Counted from the stretch's first letter, positions 1,244-38,796 are shown. The stretch is DNA of 38,852 nucleotides from Candidatus Omnitrophota bacterium (GCA_049324655.1 JBMONJ010000173.1:1-38852); one strand, 5' to 3'. The notes: generated by a model from the sequence alone, not told the origin. Translations and numbers: made by a program.

Positions 1244-1361
1244 GTATTGGGGGTGAGTTGTGTGTTGTGGGGCGGGTTGTGGGGATGGGTTGTGAGGTTA
1301 TTAATACCTCACCCTCACTACGCACAACTCGACACCCAACTCACAACCCACCCTCATTCCC
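1244..1361. repeat. Family-1 G/T-word foldback element, copy 1 (118 nt)
   Basis: Starts gtattgggggtgag and ends ccaccctcattccc. The 5' arm is made of gtgag/ttgtg words and the 3' arm of ctcac/cacaac words, around the centre gtgaggttattaatacctcac. It has the same termini and length as the copy at 9826..9943. Confidence 0.8.
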
Positions 1362-1382
1362 TGCAAAATCTGAACTTTCCCC

Positions 1383-1411
1383 TTGTTTTGTTAAAGTTTT
1401 GCCGATATAAT
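1383..1411 (+). promoter_or_regulatory. Weak sigma70-like promoter candidate upstream of bamA
   Basis: ttgttt, 17 nt spacer, then tataat (1406..1411). The -10 box ends only 7 nt before the bamA ATG, so the fit is uncertain. Confidence 0.25.
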
Positions 1412-1418
1412 TAGGAAA

Positions 1419-3743
1419 ATGAAGATTTGCCGGAATTTACTTTTTTGCTTAGCCGTTTTGTCTGCGGCTGATTTTTTATATGCCCAAGAACCCGGCCAAA
1501 GCCCCATCTCTAAGGAATCTCCGAAACTGGTAAAGGCTATAGAGGTAAAAGGCAACCGCACTATCGCTACCGCGGTCATTCTCTCCAAGATCAAGACTAA
1601 AATCGGGCAGGAATATCTGCAAAATGTCATCAGCGAGGACATCAAAAGGCTTTACAGCACCGGATATTTCAGCGATGTCAACATCGACCGGGAAGATTAT
1701 CAGGCGGGGTTTAAGGTTATTTTTGTCCTTACGGAGAAACCGATAATCGAGAAGATAAGTTTCAGCAAGACGCGGTTTATCCGGGAGAGAAAACTGCGCA
1801 CAGTCATTGCTTCCAAGGATGGCGCGTTCTTGGACGAAAAAGTCATCAAGGACGACTTACGTTCCATCGCCGAGCTTTACCGTAAAGAAGGTTTCTCGTT
1901 GGCCAGCGTTGATTATGCCACCGAGATTGACGCGGCCGGGGCCAAGGCAAAGTTGAATTTCATCATCGAAGAGGGTCGCCGGACGCGCATCACCAAGATT
2001 TTCATAAAAGGTAACTCGTCATTTAAATCCGGTCGCATCCTCAAACTGATAAAGACCCGTCCCCGGTCGTTGTTTAACGCCGGTTTCTATAAAAGAGAGA
2101 TTCTCGACGAGGATATGGAGCGAATTGTCGCCTTCTACAATGGCGAGGGATTTTTGGACGCCAAGGCGGACTATGAGATTGATGAATCAAAGAAGAATCG
2201 CCTTTATGTCCGGATAAACATTGCCGAAGGCAAACGGTATTATGTGGGCAAGGTGACGGTATCCGGCAACACGGTGTTCTCCGAGAATGAGATTAAAGCC
2301 CAGATAAAGGAAACCAAGCCGGCAAAGATTTTCGCGCGAGCTCGGCTGGACGCGGATGCGGACAGTATCCGCGCGCTTTATTTCGACAAGGGTTATATCT
2401 TCGCCGATATCAAGTCCGATACCCTGCTCGATCCGGAAAGCGGCAAGGTGGATGTGACTCTGATTGTTGATGAAGGCGTGGTGGCCTATGTCAACAAGAT
2501 AAAGGTTCGTGGCAATGTTAAAACCAAGGATATAGTTATCCGTAGGGAATTAAGGATAAGGCCGGGAGACCGCTTTGATGGAAGCAAATTACGCCGCAGT
2601 CAGGAGCGCCTGCGCAATTTGGGTTTCTTTGAAGAAATAAGTTATGATGTGGAGATGCCCGAGCGGCCCTCGGAGGATAAGCGGGACTTGGTAGTGGAGG
2701 TTAAGGAATCCAAGACCGGGGAATTCAGTTTCGGCGGCGGATACAGTACTGTTGATCAGCTGGTCGGTTTTATCCAGTTAGAGCAGAAGAACTTCGACTG
2801 GAAGAATTTCCCGACCTTTACCGGCGCCGGACAAGACATTAAACTTCATTACGAGGCGGGCACGCTTAAACAGAACGCCTATTTAAGCTTTACTGAGCCG
2901 TGGCTCTTTGATTATCCGGTTTCCTTCGGCTTTGATGCCTTTCGCACCGAGCATAAACGCGCCGAGGATGTGGGTTACGGTTATGATGACAAGCGGGTCG
3001 GCGGCGACCTGCGGTTGGGCAAAGAATTTTCCGATTACCTGAAGGGTAACGCGATATATTCGCTGGAAGATATTACGATAAGCAATATTGACGATGCGGC
3101 GAGCTCCGAGTTAAAGAAAGAGGCTGGGACCAATACCGTGAGCAGGTTAGGACTGGGTCTTACCTACGACACCCGCGATAATATCTTAGACCCTACGCGG
3201 GGTTATATGCTTAACGCTTTTCTTGAGGGTGCGGGTGGGCCTTTAAGCGGAGACAAGAATTTCACCCGCTACACCTTTAAGGGTAGCTTAGATATACCGC
3301 TTGCCTTTAAATCAGTCTTGGAATTCCGTGGCCAGGCGGGTTTTGCCGATGCCTTCGGTGACTCGGATGAGGTGCCGATTTATGAAAGATATTTTGCCGG
3401 CGGCGCTTACACGATACGCGGATACAATGAAAGAAATGTCGGTCCGGTTGACCCTGCTTCCAATGATCCCATCGGCGGTAATTCCATGCTCGTCGGGAAT
3501 ATCGAACTTACCGTCCCGTTAATGGATTTTATTCGTGCCGCGGGTTTCTTCGATACCGGTAATGTCTGGGAAAAGGCCAAAGATTTCGGCAGCGGCGGTT
3601 TCAAATCCGGTTTAGGGTTTGGTTTCCGGGTCAAGACGCCTATCGGCCCGATAAGGCTGGATTACGGCTTCCCCTTAAACGAAGAGCCGGGAGAGGATAA
3701 AAAGAAAGGTAAATTCTATTTTAGTATGAGCCAGAACTTTTAA
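1419..3743 (+). CDS. bamA: Outer membrane protein assembly factor BamA (Omp85 family)
   Basis: 774 aa with an N-terminal signal peptide, repeated POTRA-like modules (IKVRGN..T.D..IRREL) and a C-terminal beta-barrel ending GFGFRVKTPIGPIRLDYGFPL...FYFSMSQNF. The aggaaa RBS sits before the ATG. Confidence 0.92.
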   Translation: MKICRNLLFCLAVLSAADFLYAQEPGQSPISKESPKLVKAIEVKGNRTIATAVILSKIKTKIGQEYLQNVISEDIKRLYSTGYFSDVNIDREDYQAGFKVIFVLTEKPIIEKISFSKTRFIRERKLRTVIASKDGAFLDEKVIKDDLRSIAELYRKEGFSLASVDYATEIDAAGAKAKLNFIIEEGRRTRITKIFIKGNSSFKSGRILKLIKTRPRSLFNAGFYKREILDEDMERIVAFYNGEGFLDAKADYEIDESKKNRLYVRINIAEGKRYYVGKVTVSGNTVFSENEIKAQIKETKPAKIFARARLDADADSIRALYFDKGYIFADIKSDTLLDPESGKVDVTLIVDEGVVAYVNKIKVRGNVKTKDIVIRRELRIRPGDRFDGSKLRRSQERLRNLGFFEEISYDVEMPERPSEDKRDLVVEVKESKTGEFSFGGGYSTVDQLVGFIQLEQKNFDWKNFPTFTGAGQDIKLHYEAGTLKQNAYLSFTEPWLFDYPVSFGFDAFRTEHKRAEDVGYGYDDKRVGGDLRLGKEFSDYLKGNAIYSLEDITISNIDDAASSELKKEAGTNTVSRLGLGLTYDTRDNILDPTRGYMLNAFLEGAGGPLSGDKNFTRYTFKGSLDIPLAFKSVLEFRGQAGFADAFGDSDEVPIYERYFAGGAYTIRGYNERNVGPVDPASNDPIGGNSMLVGNIELTVPLMDFIRAAGFFDTGNVWEKAKDFGSGGFKSGLGFGFRVKTPIGPIRLDYGFPLNEEPGEDKKKGKFYFSMSQNF

Positions 3744-3749
3744 GTAAAG

Positions 3750-4277
3750 GTGAGGAGGTATAAATTGAAAAATCTGAAGATTTTTTTGGCGACAGTGATA
3801 ATCCTGGGTTTTGCCGCTGGCGGTTTATGCGCGCAGGAGGCGATGAGATTCGCTTATGTGGATTTAAGCCGCCTGTTCGACGAATACTATAAGACCAAGG
3901 AATACGACGAGATTTTAAGCGGCAAGGCCAAGGTGAAGGAAGAGGAGCGCGGCAAAATCATAAATGTAATCAAGGACCTGCAGGCAAAGCTGGCCCTGGT
4001 AAGCGACAAGGAAAAAGACAAATTGCAGTCTCAGCTTGACGCAAAGATGAAGTCGTTAGAGGAATTTGACCGTGAGGCAACGGCTGATTTACGCAAGCAG
4101 CGCGACGAGCTGTTGCGCGAGGTCCTCAAGGATATTGAAAAGGTAGTGCGTGATTATGCCCAGAAGGAGAAATACGATTTTATCTTTAACGACCGTATAC
4201 TCCTTTACGGCGACGATGGTTATGATATTACCCAGCCGCTGATTAAGATTTTAAACGAGAAGGCGAAAAAGAAATAA
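3750..4277 (+). CDS. skp: Periplasmic chaperone Skp/OmpH
   Basis: About 170 aa with a signal peptide followed by lysine/glutamate-rich coiled coil. It sits in the classic position between bamA and lpxD. The true start may be TTG at 3765, which is 7 nt after a gaggagg RBS. Confidence 0.8.
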
Positions 4278-4282
4278 CCGAT

Positions 4283-5341
4283 ATGCGTAAGACATTGGCG
4301 GAAATTGCCAGCATAGTTGACGGAGAGATTATAGGCGACGGTGCAGTAGTCATCACCGGCATCTGCGGGATAAAAGAGGCCAAGCCCGGGGATTTGACCT
4401 TTGTGGCCAATCCCAAGTACCTTTCGCTTATGGAGCAGACGCAGGCCTCGGCGATTATTACCTCTAAAGAGATAAAATCGGCGCCCAAGCCGATTATCCG
4501 CACCGAGAATCCTTCGTTGGCCTTTGCCAAAATGGTTTCTTTAATTGCGCCAAATGAGGTACCGCATTTCTCCGGCGTGCATAAGACAGCGATCATCGGC
4601 CAGAATGTTAAACTCGGTAAAGATATCGCCGTCGGCCCCTATGTGATCGTGGAGGATAACGCGGTAATTGGAGAGCGTACCGTCATTTATGCCGGATGTT
4701 ATATTGGTCATCATGCGATAATCGGTAAGGACTGTCTTATTTATCCGGGCGTTTCCATTCGCGAGAGGATAACTATCGGCGGGAGGGTAATTATTCACAG
4801 CGGGACGGTTATCGGTTCCGACGGGTTCGGCTTTGCCACTATTAAGGGGTTGCACCATAAGATTCCGCAAATAGGCACGGTGATTATCGAAGACGATGTG
4901 GAAGTCGGCGCCAATGTCACTATTGACCGCGCGCGATTTGACAAGACGGTTATCGGTAAGGGGACCAAGATTGATAATTTAGTGCAAATCGCGCATAATG
5001 TTATCGTCGGAGAAAATTGTATCATCGTCGCCCAAGCGGGCATCTCCGGCAGCACGGCGCTGGGCAAGAATGTTCTCTTGGCCGGACAGGCCGGTTTAGT
5101 CGGTCATATCACCATCGGCGACGGCGTGGTAGTTGCGGCCCAAGCCGGCGTAACCAAATCGGTTCCCGCCAATACCAAGGTATCTGGATATCCCGCCAAA
5201 CCTCACGATACAGCTAAGAAGGTAAACGCCTGCCTGCAGCGTCTTCCCCAGCTCGTAGATAAGGTAAAGGAACTTGAGAAGAAGCTCGCTGAATTACAGG
5301 AGCAGCTGAAAAGCAAATATTCTACTTCGCATAGCCAATGA
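4283..5341 (+). CDS. lpxD: UDP-3-O-acylglucosamine N-acyltransferase LpxD
   Basis: N-terminal [16 protein letters not shown]...[12 protein letters not shown] followed by long left-handed beta-helix hexapeptide repeats. Confidence 0.92.
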
Positions 5342-5424
5342 GAAAAAATGGTAAATGCTTCGAAGAATATTCTCCGAAGCCCTACCACAGTTTGACTATG
5401 TAAGGGCGAAGGAGAATAGACGCC

Positions 5425-6738
5425 ATGGACTTGCAGAAAACTATAAGAAAAACCGTCTCCTTGGAAGGTATCGGTTTGCATACTGGCGGCCGGGTGAAGG
5501 TTACCTTTAAGCCGGCGCTGGCTAATGCGGGAATAAATTTTATCCGCGTGGATTTACCCGGAAAGCCGGTTATCTGCGCCGCGATAGATAATATTTTAGA
5601 TATTGATAAGGCCCCGCGCCGGACCTCGGTGGGTAAAGACGGAGTGGAGATTCATACCGTCGAGCATCTAATGGCCACCCTCTGCGGATTAGGCGTAGAT
5701 AATCTCAATATCGATATTGATAATAACGAAGTCCCTGGTTTGGACGGCAGCGGTCTCAATTTCTTAGAGGCCATTAAAGATGCGGGATTAGAGGAGCAGC
5801 AGTCTGCGCGGCGTTATTTCTATGTCAAAGAACCGGTGATGGTAGAGGAAAGAGATTGTTTCCTGGCCGCCTTTCCCCACGCCCACTACAAGATTGCCTA
5901 TACTCTCGATTATCATCATCCCTTAATGAAGGCGCAGTATTTGAATATCGAGTTAAACCACGAGAGCTTTGAAAAGGAAGTGGCGGGTTTTCGTACCTTT
6001 GTGTTGGAGGACGAGGTTGAGGATTTAAAGCTGCGCGGTCTTGGCCGGGGGGCAAACTATGAAAATACCCTCGTCGTCGGCGAAAAAGGCATAAAGGAAA
6101 ATACCCTGCGCGCGGAGAATGAATTTGTCCGGCACAAAGTACTGGATTTAATCGGCGACCTTTATCTTTTGGGAATGCCGATAAAGGCGGCGGTGGTCGG
6201 GGCAAAGAGCGGCCATGCGCTGAATATTCGTCTGTTAAAAAAAATAAATGAGCAAAAGGGCCAGTTTGAATTAGGCGGCGTGCAAGCGACGAGTATCGCC
6301 CGTGGCAAGGAACTGGATATTTCCCAGATAATGAAGATCCTGCCCCACCGTTATCCATTTCTCTTGGTAGACCGCATCATTTCCATTGAAGATGGCAAGC
6401 GCGCCGTGGGCGTAAAGAATGTCACCATTAACGAAGGTTTTTTCCAAGGCCACTTTCCCCAGCGTCCAGTGATGCCCGGGGTGTTGATTATCGAAGCCAT
6501 GGCGCAGGTGGGCGGCGTATTGATGCTTTCACAGGAACAGCATATGGGCAAAATTGCCTATTTTATCGCTGCCAACAACATAAAATTCCGCAAGACGGTG
6601 ACTCCCGGTGACCAGCTGGTTTTAGAGGTGGAGATTATAAAGGTTAAATCCAAGACCGGTCAGGTGCATACCGTTGCCAAGGTTGATGGCCGGGTGGTTG
6701 CTGAGGCAGATCTAATGTTTACTTTGGTTGAATCGTAA
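5425..6738 (+). CDS. lpxC-fabZ: Bifunctional LpxC deacetylase / FabZ 3-hydroxyacyl-ACP dehydratase fusion
   Basis: The N-terminal ~280 aa are LpxC-like (TIRKTVSLEGIGLHTGG, HTVEHL, HKVLDLIGDL). The C-terminal ~145 aa are FabZ-like (LPHRYPFLLVDRI, GHFPQRPVMPGVLIIEAMAQ). Confidence 0.9.
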   Translation: MDLQKTIRKTVSLEGIGLHTGGRVKVTFKPALANAGINFIRVDLPGKPVICAAIDNILDIDKAPRRTSVGKDGVEIHTVEHLMATLCGLGVDNLNIDIDNNEVPGLDGSGLNFLEAIKDAGLEEQQSARRYFYVKEPVMVEERDCFLAAFPHAHYKIAYTLDYHHPLMKAQYLNIELNHESFEKEVAGFRTFVLEDEVEDLKLRGLGRGANYENTLVVGEKGIKENTLRAENEFVRHKVLDLIGDLYLLGMPIKAAVVGAKSGHALNIRLLKKINEQKGQFELGGVQATSIARGKELDISQIMKILPHRYPFLLVDRIISIEDGKRAVGVKNVTINEGFFQGHFPQRPVMPGVLIIEAMAQVGGVLMLSQEQHMGKIAYFIAANNIKFRKTVTPGDQLVLEVEIIKVKSKTGQVHTVAKVDGRVVAEADLMFTLVES

Positions 6739-6840: not shown

Positions 6841-7245
6841 ATGGACAAGCCAAAACCGATAGTCCTGTCGATGATAATATGCGACACCGTGCTTGATGAT
6901 AGGGCTACCAACAAGAAAACATTGGTTGGATTGTTTAGCAATATTTGGGCTTCTTCTTGTCCTTGCGTTCATCCGCGGCTTAATGTTTTTATAACCTTAA
7001 CTGATGGAAGAGGCAGTTATCAGGGTAGCTTAAAGTGTGTTAACGAAGATACGAATACGGAAATACTGAGACTTGAAGGTCCCATAATTTTTCAGAGCGG
7101 AGAGCATATTATAGAGTTAAATTTTGAATTAGTTAATGTTCGTTTCCCCGCTTTTGGAAGTTATCACTTTGAGTTTTGGTGCGACGGCGATATTCTAATA
7201 ACCAGAAGATTCGCAGTCACACAGCAGGAAAGCGTGGGAAGATAA
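6841..7245 (+). CDS. Hypothetical small protein (134 aa), first gene of the AT-rich cassette
   Basis: Good RBS and no recognisable catalytic motif. The alternating hydrophobic pattern looks beta-rich (IVLSMIICDTVL, LNVFITL, HIIELNFELVNVRF, GSYHFEFWCDGDILITRRFAV). It resembles small DUF-type beta-sandwich proteins, but that is from memory and unverified. Its stop is 1 nt before the next start. Confidence 0.6.
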   Translation: MDKPKPIVLSMIICDTVLDDRATNKKTLVGLFSNIWASSCPCVHPRLNVFITLTDGRGSYQGSLKCVNEDTNTEILRLEGPIIFQSGEHIIELNFELVNVRFPAFGSYHFEFWCDGDILITRRFAVTQQESVGR

Positions 7246-7246
7246 A

Positions 7247-7498
7247 ATGATAGACATAGTTCAAACTGACAGCCCGTCGGGACTTTACAATTTCTCGTCA
7301 AAAGAAAAAAATACGATAGTCAAAGGTATTCCCACAACTTGCCATAAGTTTGTCTTTCGTCACTCTATTATAGTTTCTAGCGTTGAGTTGTCGGACGAAG
7401 AAATGATCGCCATCGCCGAAAGGGCGGGGACATTTTCTTTTCTTAACAAGCCAGAAGAAGATATTTACACGATGGAAGATGGCGAAGCGGTCCAATGA
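7247..7498 (+). CDS. Putative antitoxin (83 aa) partner of the MazF/PemK toxin
   Basis: Its stop overlaps the toxin start (ATGA). It is small with an acidic C-terminus (LSDEEMIAIAERAG..FLNKPEEDIYTMEDGEAV). I recognised no DNA-binding motif. Confidence 0.5.
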   Translation: MIDIVQTDSPSGLYNFSSKEKNTIVKGIPTTCHKFVFRHSIIVSSVELSDEEMIAIAERAGTFSFLNKPEEDIYTMEDGEAVQ

Positions 7499-7842
7499 AA
7501 AAAGGCGATATATTATTAGTACGTTTTCCCTTTACCGATTTGACTTCTCTAAAAGTTCGTCCCACGGTAGTAATATCTCCGGATTCATATAATAAACAGC
7601 ATCAAGATCTGCTCTTAATGTTTATTACGACGAACGTCTCGACCTCCGGACCAGAAGATTTTCTACTAACAAATAAACACCCGGAGTTTGCTTTAACCGG
7701 TCTTAAAGTAAATTCGCTTTTCAAGATAAGTAAAATTAGTATTCTATCAAAACGTCTCGCTGTAAGAAAATTAGGCAATATCGGCCCCCAAATTTCTTCA
7801 GAGATAAATTCCAGATTGCAATCCTTCCTTCAATTAATGTAA
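7495..7842 (+). CDS. MazF/PemK-family toxin (endoribonuclease)
   Basis: N-terminal KKGDILLVRFPFTDLTSLKVRPTVVIS followed by LLLMFITTN, the hallmark pattern of PemK/MazF SH3-like toxins. 115 aa. Confidence 0.75.
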   Translation: MKKGDILLVRFPFTDLTSLKVRPTVVISPDSYNKQHQDLLLMFITTNVSTSGPEDFLLTNKHPEFALTGLKVNSLFKISKISILSKRLAVRKLGNIGPQISSEINSRLQSFLQLM

Positions 7843-36379: not shown

Positions 36380-36442
36380 TTTTTAACGCGAATTTTCGCG
36401 AATCCCTGCCTGCCTTCGGCAGGCGAGCAAATTAACGCAGAT

Positions 36443-37585
36443 ATGAAAACCAACGAACAAGTCTTGGATTTATCGGTTGATTTGGAGAAAGAGCAATACG
36501 ACTGGAAGAAGGATGTTATCGTTAATAAGTCGAAGCTCTTGGAGAAGGTGGAAGAAGCCGAGAACTTAAGGGATATTCCGCAGCTCAAGAACCGCATTTT
36601 TTCCATCAAGTCCGTCATTAGCTATCCCAAAAGCGATACCGAAGGCTTATTAAACATCGAGCAAAACGGCGACACGATTGTCCTTAAAAAGGGCGCACTC
36701 GTAGAGGAATTGAGACAGATAGAAGAAGCACATACCATTGAGAGGGCCCGATATTATCTCGACCGCCTTAAAAAAGGTATAAGTGAAATAAAAACCAGCA
36801 AGATTAACGATATAAATTTGAACCGCTGGAAGGAATATCAGGAAATTATCACCGATAGTTTATGGCTTTTGGAAAAAAGAGACACCTCGGGCGCGCATAT
36901 CGGCTGGTATTGGGGGAATTTTGTTCCCCAGATACCCCACCAATTAATGCTGCGTTATACTAAGAAAGACGACTGGGTTATCGATCCTTTTGTTGGCAGC
37001 GGGACGACTTTAATTGAATGCCGCCGCTTGGGCAGAAACGGTATCGGTATTGATTTAAACCCCATAGTTGTAAGAGAAGCCAAGAATCTAATTAAGAAAG
37101 AGGATAATACCCATAATGTTGTCAACGAAGTTGTCGCCGCAGACAGCAGAAAGATAAACCTGAGAGAGACGCTGGATAAGCTTGGCGTAAAACAGGTTCA
37201 GCTTCTTATTATGCACCCTCCGTATCACGATATCATTAGATTCAGCAGGAGTAAGGATGACTTATCCAATGCTTCAACTACGGAAGAATTCGTCAAAATG
37301 TTCGGGGAGGTCTTGGACAATACAGCGCCGTATCTGGAAAAGGGAAGATATCTCGGCATTGTAATCGGCGATAAATATTACAAAGGTACTTGGATACCTT
37401 TGGGGTTTTATGTAATGAACGAGGTCCTAAAGAGAGACTTTACCCTGAAAAGCATAATTGTGAAGAACTTTGAACAGACAAGAGGCAAGCGGAATCAGCA
37501 GGAATTATGGCGATATAGGGCATTAGTGGGTGGGTTCTATATCTTTAAGCACGAGTATATTTTGTTGTTTAAAAAGAGTAAGTAA
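36443..37585 (+). CDS. SAM-dependent N6-adenine/N4-cytosine-type methyltransferase with a ~180 aa N-terminal extension
   Basis: AdoMet motif WVIDPFVGSGTTLIEC followed ~70 aa later by the catalytic-type LLIMHPPY. The N-terminal 180 aa are charged and helical with no motif I recognise. The stop overlaps the next start (TAATG). Confidence 0.75.
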   Translation: MKTNEQVLDLSVDLEKEQYDWKKDVIVNKSKLLEKVEEAENLRDIPQLKNRIFSIKSVISYPKSDTEGLLNIEQNGDTIVLKKGALVEELRQIEEAHTIERARYYLDRLKKGISEIKTSKINDINLNRWKEYQEIITDSLWLLEKRDTSGAHIGWYWGNFVPQIPHQLMLRYTKKDDWVIDPFVGSGTTLIECRRLGRNGIGIDLNPIVVREAKNLIKKEDNTHNVVNEVVAADSRKINLRETLDKLGVKQVQLLIMHPPYHDIIRFSRSKDDLSNASTTEEFVKMFGEVLDNTAPYLEKGRYLGIVIGDKYYKGTWIPLGFYVMNEVLKRDFTLKSIIVKNFEQTRGKRNQQELWRYRALVGGFYIFKHEYILLFKKSK

Positions 37586-38796
37586 TGACTACGCATGTTT
37601 TTATAGTAGATTCGACTACATTCAAGGTACACTTAGAAAATCTTTTTGCTGGCACTGGTGCCAAAGATATGGTTGTTGATTTTAACGATAGTGCTAATTC
37701 CAAACTGGGCCCTACGACAGAACAGATGTTGGTGGATATGATTGCCGATGTAAGTCGAATAAGAGAAGGCGAGCAATTAATCTTTTATTTGCAGCAGAAT
37801 TTCCAAGATGGAATAAGAGAAGGTAAATTTTATGGGGTATTTAAGATAAAGAAAGCCGGAGAACTGCTTGCCTTTTATGACCCCAATGACAGTAAGCAAT
37901 ATCTTATGGACGAATTAGATAAGTCCCTTACCTTTAGAGTTTTAATTGAACCATATCAAGTATATCCTATTGGCGTCACCGAATGGGAAGCGCTCGACGA
38001 TATCAAGAATATAATTTCGCCGCACCAGATGCTTTGGAGCTTGATTTATCGAAAGCTAAAGGGCAATAGGGGATGTACCGCGATAACAACTTATGAGTCC
38101 CAGCGACTTTGTAATCTTATAAGAGCTAAGAATAATCGAATCGCTTTAGAGGTGAATAATAGACAACTGACTTTTAACAAGAAGTCTGAGCAGATAGAGT
38201 TGCTCAATCGTAAAAGTCCGGAATATGCAGGACGAAGAGTAGATTTAAACATTTTTCCGCGCCTGATAGAGAAGTACAAAGAGAATAAACAATTCGAGCA
38301 CCATCTGGAGGCGTTAATATCCAAGAATCTGGGTTTCGGGACGAATCCGTCTTTGGATAAATATCTATTAGAAAATAAGGAATTGGTTTGGTTAGGGAAT
38401 CAGGTAGCTTGTGGTGTAGGTATGCAAAGAATAGATATTCTATTTTCTCTCAAAGAGGGGGAGCAATATTTTCATTGTCCGGTAGAATTAAAGTCAACAT
38501 TCGCCAGTGAAGATAATATTCGACAGCTAAGAAGATATATGGATTGGATGAACCAATATTTTATCCCTAATTTGCCGGGTGATTTATGTCCTATTTTGAT
38601 TACGAGAAAAATTCCAAGCCAGCAAATCGGGAGGAAGGGGGAGTTCAAATTTGTGTCTAAAGGTAGGTCAGAATATTTTAAGAATCTTATCGCTTGTTTT
38701 GATCAGTTTAACGCAGAATACCGTTGTAGAATAAAGTTTCTAGAATATGCTATTGATAGCCGTGATAATTTAACTTTTGAAGAAACGGATTATTAA
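37585..38796 (+). CDS. Putative restriction-type nuclease: N-terminal PUA-like (EVE/ASCH-like) domain plus C-terminal PD-(D/E)xK domain
   Basis: The C-terminus GMQRIDILFSLKEGEQYFHCPVELKSTFASEDNIRQLRRYMDW fits the D...ExK...QxxxY pattern of NucS/RecB-like nucleases. The N-terminus HVFIVDSTTFKVHL...IREGEQLIFYLQQ...GKFYGVFKIKK resembles PUA-like beta-barrels, but that is inference only. Confidence 0.6.
   Translation: MTTHVFIVDSTTFKVHLENLFAGTGAKDMVVDFNDSANSKLGPTTEQMLVDMIADVSRIREGEQLIFYLQQNFQDGIREGKFYGVFKIKKAGELLAFYDPNDSKQYLMDELDKSLTFRVLIEPYQVYPIGVTEWEALDDIKNIISPHQMLWSLIYRKLKGNRGCTAITTYESQRLCNLIRAKNNRIALEVNNRQLTFNKKSEQIELLNRKSPEYAGRRVDLNIFPRLIEKYKENKQFEHHLEALISKNLGFGTNPSLDKYLLENKELVWLGNQVACGVGMQRIDILFSLKEGEQYFHCPVELKSTFASEDNIRQLRRYMDWMNQYFIPNLPGDLCPILITRKIPSQQIGRKGEFKFVSKGRSEYFKNLIACFDQFNAEYRCRIKFLEYAIDSRDNLTFEETDY

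Follow-up and report, generated by a model that had tools for sequence, protein, structure and literature searches.

What does a nuclease that carries an EVE domain do when its gene overlaps that of a methyltransferase (MTase)? The question is raised by two genes at the 3' edge of a contig from a metagenome-assembled genome (MAG) of a Candidatus Omnitrophota bacterium (GCA_049324655.1 JBMONJ010000173.1:1-38852). The full contig of 38,852 nt was analyzed and is referred to here as the window. A first-pass annotation had offered two possibilities: an unusual Type II-like restriction-modification (R-M) pair, or a module in which a reader of modified bases gates a nuclease next to its own MTase. 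Comparative data (the obligate linkage of the two genes, the shuffling of partners, and alternative classical restriction endonucleases (REases) beside the same MTase) favor ordinary Type II logic, and the pair is probably a horizontally mobile Type II R-M operon with an unusual EVE-bearing nuclease. The central features are as follows.

36443..37585, + strand: MTase gene, 380 aa; predicted permuted beta-like ('class E') amino-methyltransferase, long form
37583..37587, + strand: TAATG stop/start overlap, read from the raw sequence
37585..38796, + strand: candidate REase gene, 403 aa; EVE domain, helical middle region, and PD-(D/E)xK domain

As the first-pass annotation had noted, the two open reading frames (ORFs) meet in a TAATG sequence. 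The TAA of the MTase gene (37583-37585) and the ATG of the nuclease gene (37585-37587) have one common base, 37585, and this overlap suggests translational coupling. The pair consists of separate adjacent MTase and endonuclease genes, and the earlier remark that no ATPase or specificity subunit is present agrees with the library searches, in which neither protein had an ATPase or HsdS-type match (Pfam, NCBIfam, and PADLOC). In the proposed mechanism, the MTase would mark a short target sequence in host DNA, and the translationally coupled nuclease would cut DNA that lacks the mark of the MTase through a NucS-like center formed by D284, E301, and K303. The EVE domain and a conserved middle region would provide DNA binding and discrimination. 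The nuclease is thus expected to cut unmethylated sites, with methylation being protective.

Linkage, exchange, and partners of the two genes

The nuclease belongs to a large family (2,715 clusters at 90% identity and 292 clusters at 50% identity), whose members are annotated, for example, as 'DUF91 domain-containing protein' or 'predicted RNA-binding protein'. Among species-representative genomes, 197 nuclease loci were confirmed. The hosts include phyla of the Candidate Phyla Radiation (CPR), Omnitrophota, Dehalococcoidia (Chloroflexota), Ignavibacteria, Planctomycetota, Bacteroidota, and Gamma- and Epsilonproteobacteria, as well as archaea represented by Altarchaeum and Woesearchaeota MAGs. 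In the window, the G+C (GC) content is 0.419 for the MTase gene (z = -3.1) and 0.375 for the nuclease gene (z = -5.2), compared with 0.485 +/- 0.021 for the rest of the contig in 1150-nt windows. The pair is therefore more AT-rich than the upstream genes, as had been noticed from the sequence, and the nuclease gene lies below every upstream window of the contig. The low GC content and the presence in many phyla, including archaea, point to a foreign origin of the pair.

An MTase homolog is present at 78 of the 80 genome loci that hold the nuclease, being upstream on the same strand in 76 and downstream on the opposite strand in two. One of the remaining loci lacks an MTase, and the other has too little upstream sequence to score. 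The junctions at the 76 upstream loci are tight: 4-nt overlaps (19 loci), 1-nt overlaps (10), and gaps of 0-5 nt (30) account for 59 of them, and 66 of the 76 MTases lie within about 36 nt of the nuclease. For comparison, among the PUA-nuclease fusions studied by Lutz et al., <6% have a DNA MTase within 3 kb, a rarity that these authors used as evidence for modification dependence. The difference in linkage indicates that the present nuclease family departs from the modification-dependent enzymes. The family resembles Type IV/IIM PUA-nuclease fusions in having a candidate modification-sensor domain fused to a nuclease, but those fusions are recognized by having no cognate MTase in the locus, whereas here an MTase is nearly always found.

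The two genes do not share one history. Across 112 pairs, identity to the window MTase and identity to the window nuclease are uncorrelated (r = -0.08), as illustrated by loci L052 (85% for the MTase and 52% for the nuclease), L088 (70% and 33%), and L085 (71% and 75%). Within Omnitrophota, L051 and L052 have MTases that are 78-85% identical to that of the window, together with nucleases that are 52% identical and of a CPR type that lacks an insertion found in the window nuclease (see below). Window-type nucleases (74-81% identity) are found in L081, L085, and L086. These patterns indicate that, in this group, the nuclease gene was recently exchanged while the MTase beside it stayed almost the same. 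At two other loci, a frameshifted nuclease lies beside an intact MTase. Of the IMG/VR contigs, 2 contain the nuclease and 17 contain the MTase, mostly by itself. The nuclease was found neither in the PLSDB plasmids nor in the INPHARED phages. The MTase had no match in the INPHARED phages and one distant match in PLSDB, which lies in a mislabeled Fusobacterium chromosome.

On the MTase side, 80 metagenome loci were selected through the MTases most closely related to the long form. The EVE-nuclease is present in 37 of these loci, 8 are too short downstream to tell, and 35 have room for it but lack it. Among those 35, about two dozen contain a 277-aa ORF, several contain an HNH enzyme, and a few are apparent orphans. 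A census of gene content covering 179 loci in all gave the following counts.

MTase + EVE-nuclease: 101 loci
MTase alone: 30 loci
MTase + 277-aa protein: 24 loci
MTase + EVE-nuclease + IceA-type enzyme: 13 loci
MTase + IceA-type enzyme only: 4 loci
EVE-nuclease alone: 3 loci
MTase + EVE-nuclease + 277-aa protein: 2 loci
MTase + EVE-nuclease + 181-aa ORF: 2 loci

The 277-aa protein (MPLLSxKEVLNLKL...) has a SAP-like N-terminus by eye and a 'GIDIFFNGQPFDLK' D...DxK motif, and had no match in Pfam, PADLOC, or NCBIfam. Its gene occupies the place of the EVE-nuclease, immediately after MTase genes closely related to that of the window, in L087 (1924-2757), L091, L095, L096, L098, L100, L108, L109, L111-L113, L115, L138, L143, L146, L150, and L158. 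This protein is probably an uncharacterized alternative REase for the same MTase and a candidate member of the PD-(D/E)xK superfamily.

IceA-family endonucleases adjoin the MTase family in 17 of the 179 loci. In L024 (~5304-5998), L076 (~5308-5998), and L079 (~5303-5998), a full-length IceA gene (PF05315, E = 2e-111) separates the MTase from the EVE-nuclease, and a second, IceA-related HNH branch is found beside long-form MTases (Pfam ICEA, 26.4 bits vs. a cutoff of 24; PADLOC REase_II, E = 1.7e-32). A more distant IceA-related REase occurs with a small helix-turn-helix-like ORF between the MTase and the EVE-nuclease in L035, and after the EVE-nuclease in L142 and L159. When the alternative partners were compared with NCBIfam and PADLOC, the only match was that of 're2' to a PADLOC REase_II model. 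Such sharing of a single MTase family by unrelated REases is a typical Type II trait. Taken together, the near-obligate linkage of the nuclease, the frequency of MTases without it, the sharing of the MTase among unrelated nucleases, and the free recombination suggest a nuclease that would be lethal in the absence of the methylase and a single specificity across the family, since the shuffling of lineages would be viable only if the MTase and nuclease lineages share specificity.

A separate observation concerns the 181-aa ORF (...GLYLGRD..AL..FYS.DF..P...GYDGIRY.D.DATGEEFVLY...), which is flanked by the MTase and the EVE-nuclease in L034 (3903-4388) and L066 (5443-5998) and had no match in Pfam, PADLOC, or NCBIfam.

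Domains and conserved residues of the nuclease

The nuclease is divided into three parts, with the catalytic residues in the last.

37585..38010, + strand: EVE-like (PUA superfamily) domain, aa 1-~142; from Foldseek and from Pfam EVE matches in homologs
38023..38370, + strand: middle, mainly helical region, aa ~147-262; from DSSP of the structure model
38380..38793, + strand: NucS-like PD-(D/E)xK domain, aa 266-403; from NucS_C matches in homologs and from Foldseek
38434-38436, 38485-38487, and 38491-38493, + strand: catalytic residues D284, E301, and K303, respectively; invariant

By itself, the window nuclease matches no library family above threshold. The nearest approaches were NucS_C (PF01939; E = 0.054, 13.9 bits vs. 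a cutoff of 24) and the EVE-like NCBIfam model PRK00809 (E = 0.068), with no match to Pfam EVE (PF01878) at E <= 1, and a sequence search of the PDB returned chance matches only. Homologs and structure are more informative. When 60 homologs were scanned singly at E <= 1, NucS_C matched 56 (best E = 6.5e-6) and Pfam EVE weakly matched 14 (best E = 6e-4). Four homologs have precomputed PF01939 matches, and a divergent nuclease subfamily (~32% identity) reaches E = 0.0049 for EVE (17.3 bits vs. a cutoff of 23). An AlphaFold2 (AF2) model built from the 60 homologs has a mean predicted local distance difference test (pLDDT) score of 87.6 and a predicted template modeling (pTM) score of 0.87. The best PDB matches of this model in Foldseek are all EVE domains, namely 2hd9 (PH1033; E = 2e-6, target-normalized TM-score (TMt) 0.69), 2p5d (MJECL36; TMt 0.71), 5j3e (human THYN1 with 5-methylcytosine (5mC) DNA), Leishmania 2ar1, and 3eop, all with a Foldseek probability of 1.0 and TMt of 0.51-0.71. 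After these, Foldseek ranks PD-(D/E)xK enzymes, including Nt.BspD6I, EndoMS/NucS (5gke and 2vld), FokI, BamHI, Cap4, and Card1. The EVE/PUA-like N-terminus proposed from the strand pattern alone is thus supported by both the fold comparison and the homologs. The proposed C-terminal D...ExK...QxxxY core likewise holds, with D284, E301, K303, Q314, and Y318 being invariant in the 60 homologs and D284/E301/K303 also invariant in the divergent subfamily.

The middle region contains the motif WSLIYRKLKG.RG.T, which is invariant in both nuclease subfamilies. No specific structural match was obtained for this region, which is a candidate sequence-recognition or linker module. Two length variants were observed in the family. 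The subclade of the window nuclease has a ~15-18-aa insertion, SQQIGRKGEFKFVSKGRS (38617-38670, aa ~345-362), which has low pLDDT and is missing in the CPR-type majority. In another subclade (~455-473 aa; P0013, P0011, and L147), an insertion of ~70 aa lies within the EVE domain.

The architecture is closest to that of the VcaM4I/TspA15I group of EVE-HNH enzymes, which have an N-terminal EVE domain of ~145 aa, a helical linker, and a C-terminal nuclease. VcaM4I has its EVE domain at 1-147 and its linker at 148-178, and the numbering of the window nuclease is nearly collinear. However, the nuclease domain is HNH in that group and PD-(D/E)xK here, and those enzymes are solitary and cut DNA containing 5mC or 5-hydroxymethylcytosine (5hmC), whereas the window family is almost always coupled to an MTase. 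A closer likeness in domain content is provided by the EVE-PD(D/E)XK fusions of Bell, Wolf and Koonin (2020), which have the same two-domain core and are detectable only by sensitive methods. In the accessible part of that work, the prediction for these fusions is Type IV (modification-dependent) restriction, no mention is made of an obligate MTase overlapping them upstream, and fusion of an EVE domain to a methyltransferase is stated to be extremely rare.

These likenesses raise the possibility that the nuclease is a dual-mode or modification-dependent enzyme, recruited by its EVE domain to foreign modified bases (such as those of 5mC or 5hmC phage DNA) in the manner of VcaM4I, with the different mark written by the MTase shielding host sites from a basal, modification-independent activity of the nuclease. 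The fold match to THYN1 bound to 5mC DNA is consistent with this explanation, as are the characterized EVE-HNH enzymes that flip 5mC/5hmC into a hydrophobic pocket and the putative Type IV status given to the EVE-PD(D/E)XK fusions by Bell et al. The accessible text of the same authors also suggests that the MTases of other EVE-associated systems (Type I and helicase-nuclease) write marks that the EVE domain does not read. Moreover, about 13 of the 179 loci add an IceA-like REase, as if the EVE-nuclease gave a second activity, and these loci fit the explanation slightly better. However, an MTase in an overlapping or adjoining frame at nearly every locus is not the pattern of modification-dependent PUA-nucleases. 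In addition, the EVE domain matches the nuclease core in its degree of conservation and is in no case exchanged for another domain, whereas sensors of phage-variable modifications usually diversify. Nor can the pocket of VcaM4I (P24, W82, and Y130) be mapped reliably, because the alignment of the N-domain profile with PH1033, in which SRVKPGDKLVIYV is aligned to SRVREGDQVIFYL, is too weak (E = 0.15). F82 and Y127 are invariant in the nuclease family, and their equivalence to W82 and Y130 rests solely on the near-collinear numbering. Modification-dependent or dual-mode action is therefore considered unlikely. The idea of the EVE domain as an exchangeable accessory was also rejected, as the domain is never replaced and is merely frameshifted (two loci) or expanded by insertion.

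Under the Type II explanation, the EVE pocket may probe the flipped target base and reject its methylated form. This role is put forward tentatively, because a domain that is conserved like the catalytic core and never swapped fits a fixed ligand better than it fits a variable phage-modification sensor. A fuller version, which is somewhat more doubtful, would have the HPPY MTase (described below) as the writer and the EVE pocket as a self/non-self checkpoint that flips the same base, licensing the nuclease if the base is unmethylated or holding it off if methylated. The EVE domain, elsewhere known solely as a reader of modified bases, would then close a writer-reader-nuclease loop and give a Type II enzyme a new means of sensing its protective mark. 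In that case, the HPPY enzyme may write a mark other than N6-methyladenine (m6A) or N4-methylcytosine (m4C).

The C-terminal domain offers a different comparison. It shares the PD-(D/E)xK core D...ExK...QxxxY with the C-terminal domain of NucS/EndoMS (PF01939, DUF91), and the structure of EndoMS is among the Foldseek matches. A dedicated adjoining methylase also recalls Dam and MutH. By this logic, the pair could serve methyl-directed repair of a NucS/EndoMS- or MutH-like kind, in which the EVE domain reads the mark of the parental strand and the nuclease nicks the unmethylated daughter strand. Yet the N-terminal domain of NucS is absent from the window nuclease, and the context is that of restriction-modification rather than repair, with classical REases occurring in the same operon. 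The module is patchy across phyla, more AT-rich than its host, placed at the edge of the contig, and in some loci decayed, all of which are marks of selfish mobile defense. Repair is the least probable of the explanations considered.

Motif order and fold of the methyltransferase

The features of the MTase that bear on its class and its substrate are the following.

36983..37009, + strand: DPFVGSGTT (aa 181-189), the SAM-binding motif I; aligned with the corresponding motif in TTHA0409, M.MboIIA, and CcrM
37214..37225, + strand: catalytic motif IV, HPPY, aa 258-261; aligns to SPPY/DPPY of solved beta-class enzymes
36443..36796, + strand: optional N-terminal extension, aa 1-~118, two beta-alpha-alpha repeats; from AF2 secondary structure
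36803..36922, + strand: conserved segment before motif X, aa 121-160, KINDINLNRWKEY..DSLWLL.KRD.SGAH..YWGNF; from conservation
37466..37549, + strand: conserved C-terminal segment, aa 342-369, NFE.TRGKRNQ.ELWRYRAL.GGFY; from conservation

By sequence, the MTase matches Pfam N6_N4_Mtase (PF01555) in two stretches (E = 3.3e-23, 83 bits vs. a cutoff of 26.7). Residues 26-378 match the PADLOC MTase_II model PDLC03351 over its full length (positions 7-347 of 348; E = 1.9e-143, 476 bits), and a second PADLOC model, PDLC03376 (249 positions), covers residues 126-378. The PADLOC Type II MTase models were presumably built from REBASE sequences. A search of PDB sequences with a profile built from nine diverse members of the family gave matches to beta-class DNA amino-methyltransferases, including TTHA0409, M.MboIIA, CcrM, DpnA, N4C enzymes, and M.PvuII. 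The TTHA0409 alignment has its blocks swapped: the part of the profile with motifs X and I (positions 52-108) corresponds to residues 224-280 of the chain, and the part from motif IV on (positions 128-200) corresponds to residues 29-101. The motif order of the MTase is X-I-...-IV instead of the linear order of the beta class (IV-VIII, target-recognition domain (TRD), X-I-III). These alignments indicate that the MTase is a circular permutation of the beta-class N6/N4 DNA methyltransferases. The beta-class enzymes (TTHA0409, M.MboIIA, CcrM, DpnA, and M.PvuII) are its closest sequence relatives, with aligned X/I and IV-VIII blocks, but the window MTase differs from them in being permuted, in having His in place of Asp/Ser, and in lacking a central TRD.

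The first-pass annotation had placed the S-adenosylmethionine (SAM)-binding motif ~70 aa before the catalytic motif and considered this layout atypical. The spacing is as described, with the SAM motif ending at aa 189, HPPY starting at aa 258, and 119 aa following HPPY. The layout is indeed reversed relative to the beta class, but it is not unprecedented. In the accessible text of the preprint by Samokhina and Alexeevski, class E MTases are defined by a SAM motif that comes first, a catalytic motif within 100 aa of it, the lack of an inserted TRD, and detection by class B/D profiles; M1.BcnI and M4.BstF5I are given as characterized members, and recognition is presumed to occur through loops. 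The window MTase fits this description, with its SAM motif <100 aa before the catalytic motif, halves swapped in beta-class profiles, and no TRD insertion, and it also has the full-length PADLOC match given above. The comparison with M1.BcnI and M4.BstF5I is by description only, and HPPY and the optional ~118-aa extension are unmentioned in the accessible part of that source.

In HPPY, His takes the place of the canonical Asp/Asn/Ser of (D/N/S)PP(Y/F). Of the 76 upstream MTase ORFs that were extracted, 74 have the motif (the exceptions being L029, with no match, and L048, with an ORF truncated to 36 aa), and it is invariant in two alignments of the family. It also reaches a more distant branch with different REase neighbors, as seen in the distant PLSDB match mentioned above. 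This locus, L180, belongs to Fusobacterium vincentii NZ_CP084075.1, which is listed as a plasmid though it is 2.1 Mb in size, and its PLSDB record is nearly unannotated. The order of genes at 1339-4705 is a Dam-like MTase (by eye), R.DpnII (PF04556, E = 5e-109), an Mrr_cat endonuclease, and a 244-aa permuted MTase that has THPPY and is 34% identical to the window MTase. The cluster provides an instance of an HPPY enzyme in another R-M cluster and leaves the specificity unfixed.

Short-form MTases (~260-285 aa), which start at the equivalent of residue ~119, account for 39 of the 76 upstream ORFs, and the long form accounts for 28. Both pair with the same nuclease family. The N-terminal extension has no Pfam match, and its pLDDT in the AF2 model is up to ~90. 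The earlier description of a ~180-aa N-terminal region without recognizable motifs holds for aa 1-~118, but aa 121-160 have many invariant columns in the long and short forms and are among the most conserved parts of the protein. The proposal that aa 1-180 represent a relocated TRD was rejected, because residues 1-118 are dispensable and absent from about half of the family. The segments at aa 121-160 and 342-369 are the most conserved stretches, yet have a pLDDT of <50 in the AF2 model. This combination suggests segments that fold only on DNA, and the two may be the halves of the TRD region of a permuted beta-class enzyme, forming a split DNA-recognition element.

The MTase may instead be thought to act on RNA. 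In Foldseek, the top-ranked matches of the MTase model are Trm11, TTHA1280, Trm14, and PrmA, NCBI uses the name 'TRM11 family', and Pfam UPF0020 scores 22.5 bits vs. a cutoff of 22.3. RNA binding was the first activity described for EVE domains, and the Joint Genome Institute (JGI) label 'predicted RNA-binding protein' is attached to some nuclease homologs. On these grounds, the pair could be an RNA-directed, toxin-antitoxin-like module, with a Trm11/RlmL-like RNA MTase and an EVE RNA-binding nuclease acting on tRNA or rRNA. The Foldseek check of both models, which the first-pass annotation had proposed, thus supported its reading of the nuclease N-terminus and gave a Trm11-type ranking for the MTase, although DNA families are far ahead for the latter by sequence, as their bit scores show. 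The Trm11-type similarity is limited to the Rossmann core (~220 aligned columns, query-normalized TM-score (TMq) 0.35-0.38). It can be explained by a shared unpermuted strand order, as a sequential aligner penalizes the comparison with permuted beta-class DNA enzymes, and the same strand order is probably behind the NCBI name. Furthermore, NCBIfam TIGR01177 scores 29.7 bits vs. a cutoff of 316.55, no THUMP domain was detected in the MTase by Pfam, and the MTase family partners IceA/NlaIII-type DNA enzymes, with a distant HPPY homolog in the DpnII/Mrr cluster. An RNA target is therefore very improbable. Activity on DNA is supported by the Pfam and PADLOC matches, the beta-class alignments, and the L180 R-M cluster, all of which are sequence-level evidence.

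Target site, novelty, and genomic setting

The NlaIII and IceA1-M.HpyI systems (CATG) resemble the present one in that IceA-family enzymes adjoin the window MTase family, implying a shared protective mark. M.NlaIII and M.HpyI are alpha/D12-class enzymes and do not belong to the HPPY family. IceA1 is a CATG endonuclease homologous to NlaIII (PMC13340068). Because the same MTase family serves IceA/NlaIII-type CATG endonucleases, and must protect against the IceA-superfamily enzymes with which it is shared in 17 loci, CATG is a possible target of the window pair, although we regard it as a lead more than as an assignment. The window itself contains no IceA gene. Palindrome counts gave no guidance. 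The observed/expected (O/E) ratios in the window are 0.43 for CATG, 0.24 for ACGT, 0.30 for CTAG, 0.41 for GATC, and 0.43 for GTAC, and in the pooled host flanks (552 kb) the O/E ratio of CATG is 0.64, no lower than that of CTAG, GATC, or GGCC. Palindrome avoidance was therefore dropped as a guide to the target, as it is not discriminating and neither supports nor contradicts CATG. A fold search of BFVD for the chlorovirus CATG enzyme (R.CviAII) gave no full-length match, and a literature search on FatI/CviAII folds found nothing.

Several points weigh against the Type II explanation. It is drawn from gene anatomy, predicted folds, conservation, and linkage, and both the methylated base and the target site are at the level of candidates; CATG, in particular, is not specifically avoided in host DNA. 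The window nuclease matched neither a PADLOC REase model nor an NCBIfam model. All characterized EVE-nuclease fusions are modification-dependent and lack an MTase, so that a role for an EVE domain in a methylation-blocked enzyme is without precedent. Some loci have two nucleases (the EVE-nuclease and an IceA-like enzyme) under one MTase, which is unusual for a simple Type II system and may point to an additional role for the EVE-nuclease. Finally, a literature search on His at the catalytic (D/N/S)PPY position found nothing relevant, and the Trm11-first ranking of the MTase model, which puts RNA m2G enzymes closest by structure, must be added to these points.

Much of this system has known counterparts, namely the Type II R-M logic, the class E layout, the EVE-PD(D/E)XK pairing (as putative Type IV, in the accessible part of Bell et al.), and the NucS-like core. 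Within the literature and libraries examined, the obligately methylase-coupled EVE-nuclease family, the invariant HPPY, and the MTase as a hub for multiple REases appear to be undescribed. The combination of an EVE or other PUA-type domain with a nuclease is now treated as diagnostic of modification-dependent (Type IV/IIM) restriction, and the lack of a nearby methylase is used as supporting evidence in screens. A nuclease family with thousands of members breaks that rule and could be misclassified by annotation pipelines; at NCBI, the nuclease is currently a 'DUF91 protein' and the MTase a 'TRM11 family methyltransferase'. Reading of the unmethylated or methylated target base by the EVE pocket, if it occurs, would represent a new mark-sensing route for a restriction enzyme and a wider range of EVE ligands. 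The MTase is well suited to testing how His functions in place of the Asp, Asn, or Ser of (D/N/S)PPY, and how a permuted enzyme of a minimal ~260 aa would recognize its target through loops. The family may also yield new compact restriction reagents, possibly including a CATG neoschizomer.

Upstream of the pair, one further feature separates it from the preceding genes.

36380..36442, + strand: spacer between the aminotransferase gene and the MTase gene, 63 nt, with two hairpins; from RNA folding

The hairpin-containing spacer had been described in the first-pass annotation, and folding confirms it (dG -21.6 kcal/mol, z = -2.57, with 5 of 200 shuffles as stable). The hairpins span 36387-36400 (stem 36387-36391/36396-36400) and 36407-36425 (stem 36407-36414/36418-36425). 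They are probably a terminator or boundary of the upstream housekeeping operon; no T-run follows them, and a terminator scan of the window made no call there. The contig stops 56 nt past the nuclease gene, which places the pair at the contig edge, and searches for insertion boundaries by tRNA genes, Rfam matches, and flanking repeats gave none.

All long credible ORFs of the contig are on the + strand, and the cumulative GC skew climbs monotonically (1-38852). The 38.8-kb contig appears to be one unidirectional gene block, with no tRNA genes and no Rfam matches. The sole other strongly AT-rich patch lies at 6841-7842 (GC 0.387) and contains three small + strand ORFs. These encode a DUF6941 protein (6841-7245, E = 2e-19), an 83-aa product without a family (7247-7498), and, beginning within the end of the 83-aa frame, a PemK/MazF-type toxin (7495-7842, E = 1.1e-12). 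The patch is probably a type II toxin-antitoxin insertion.

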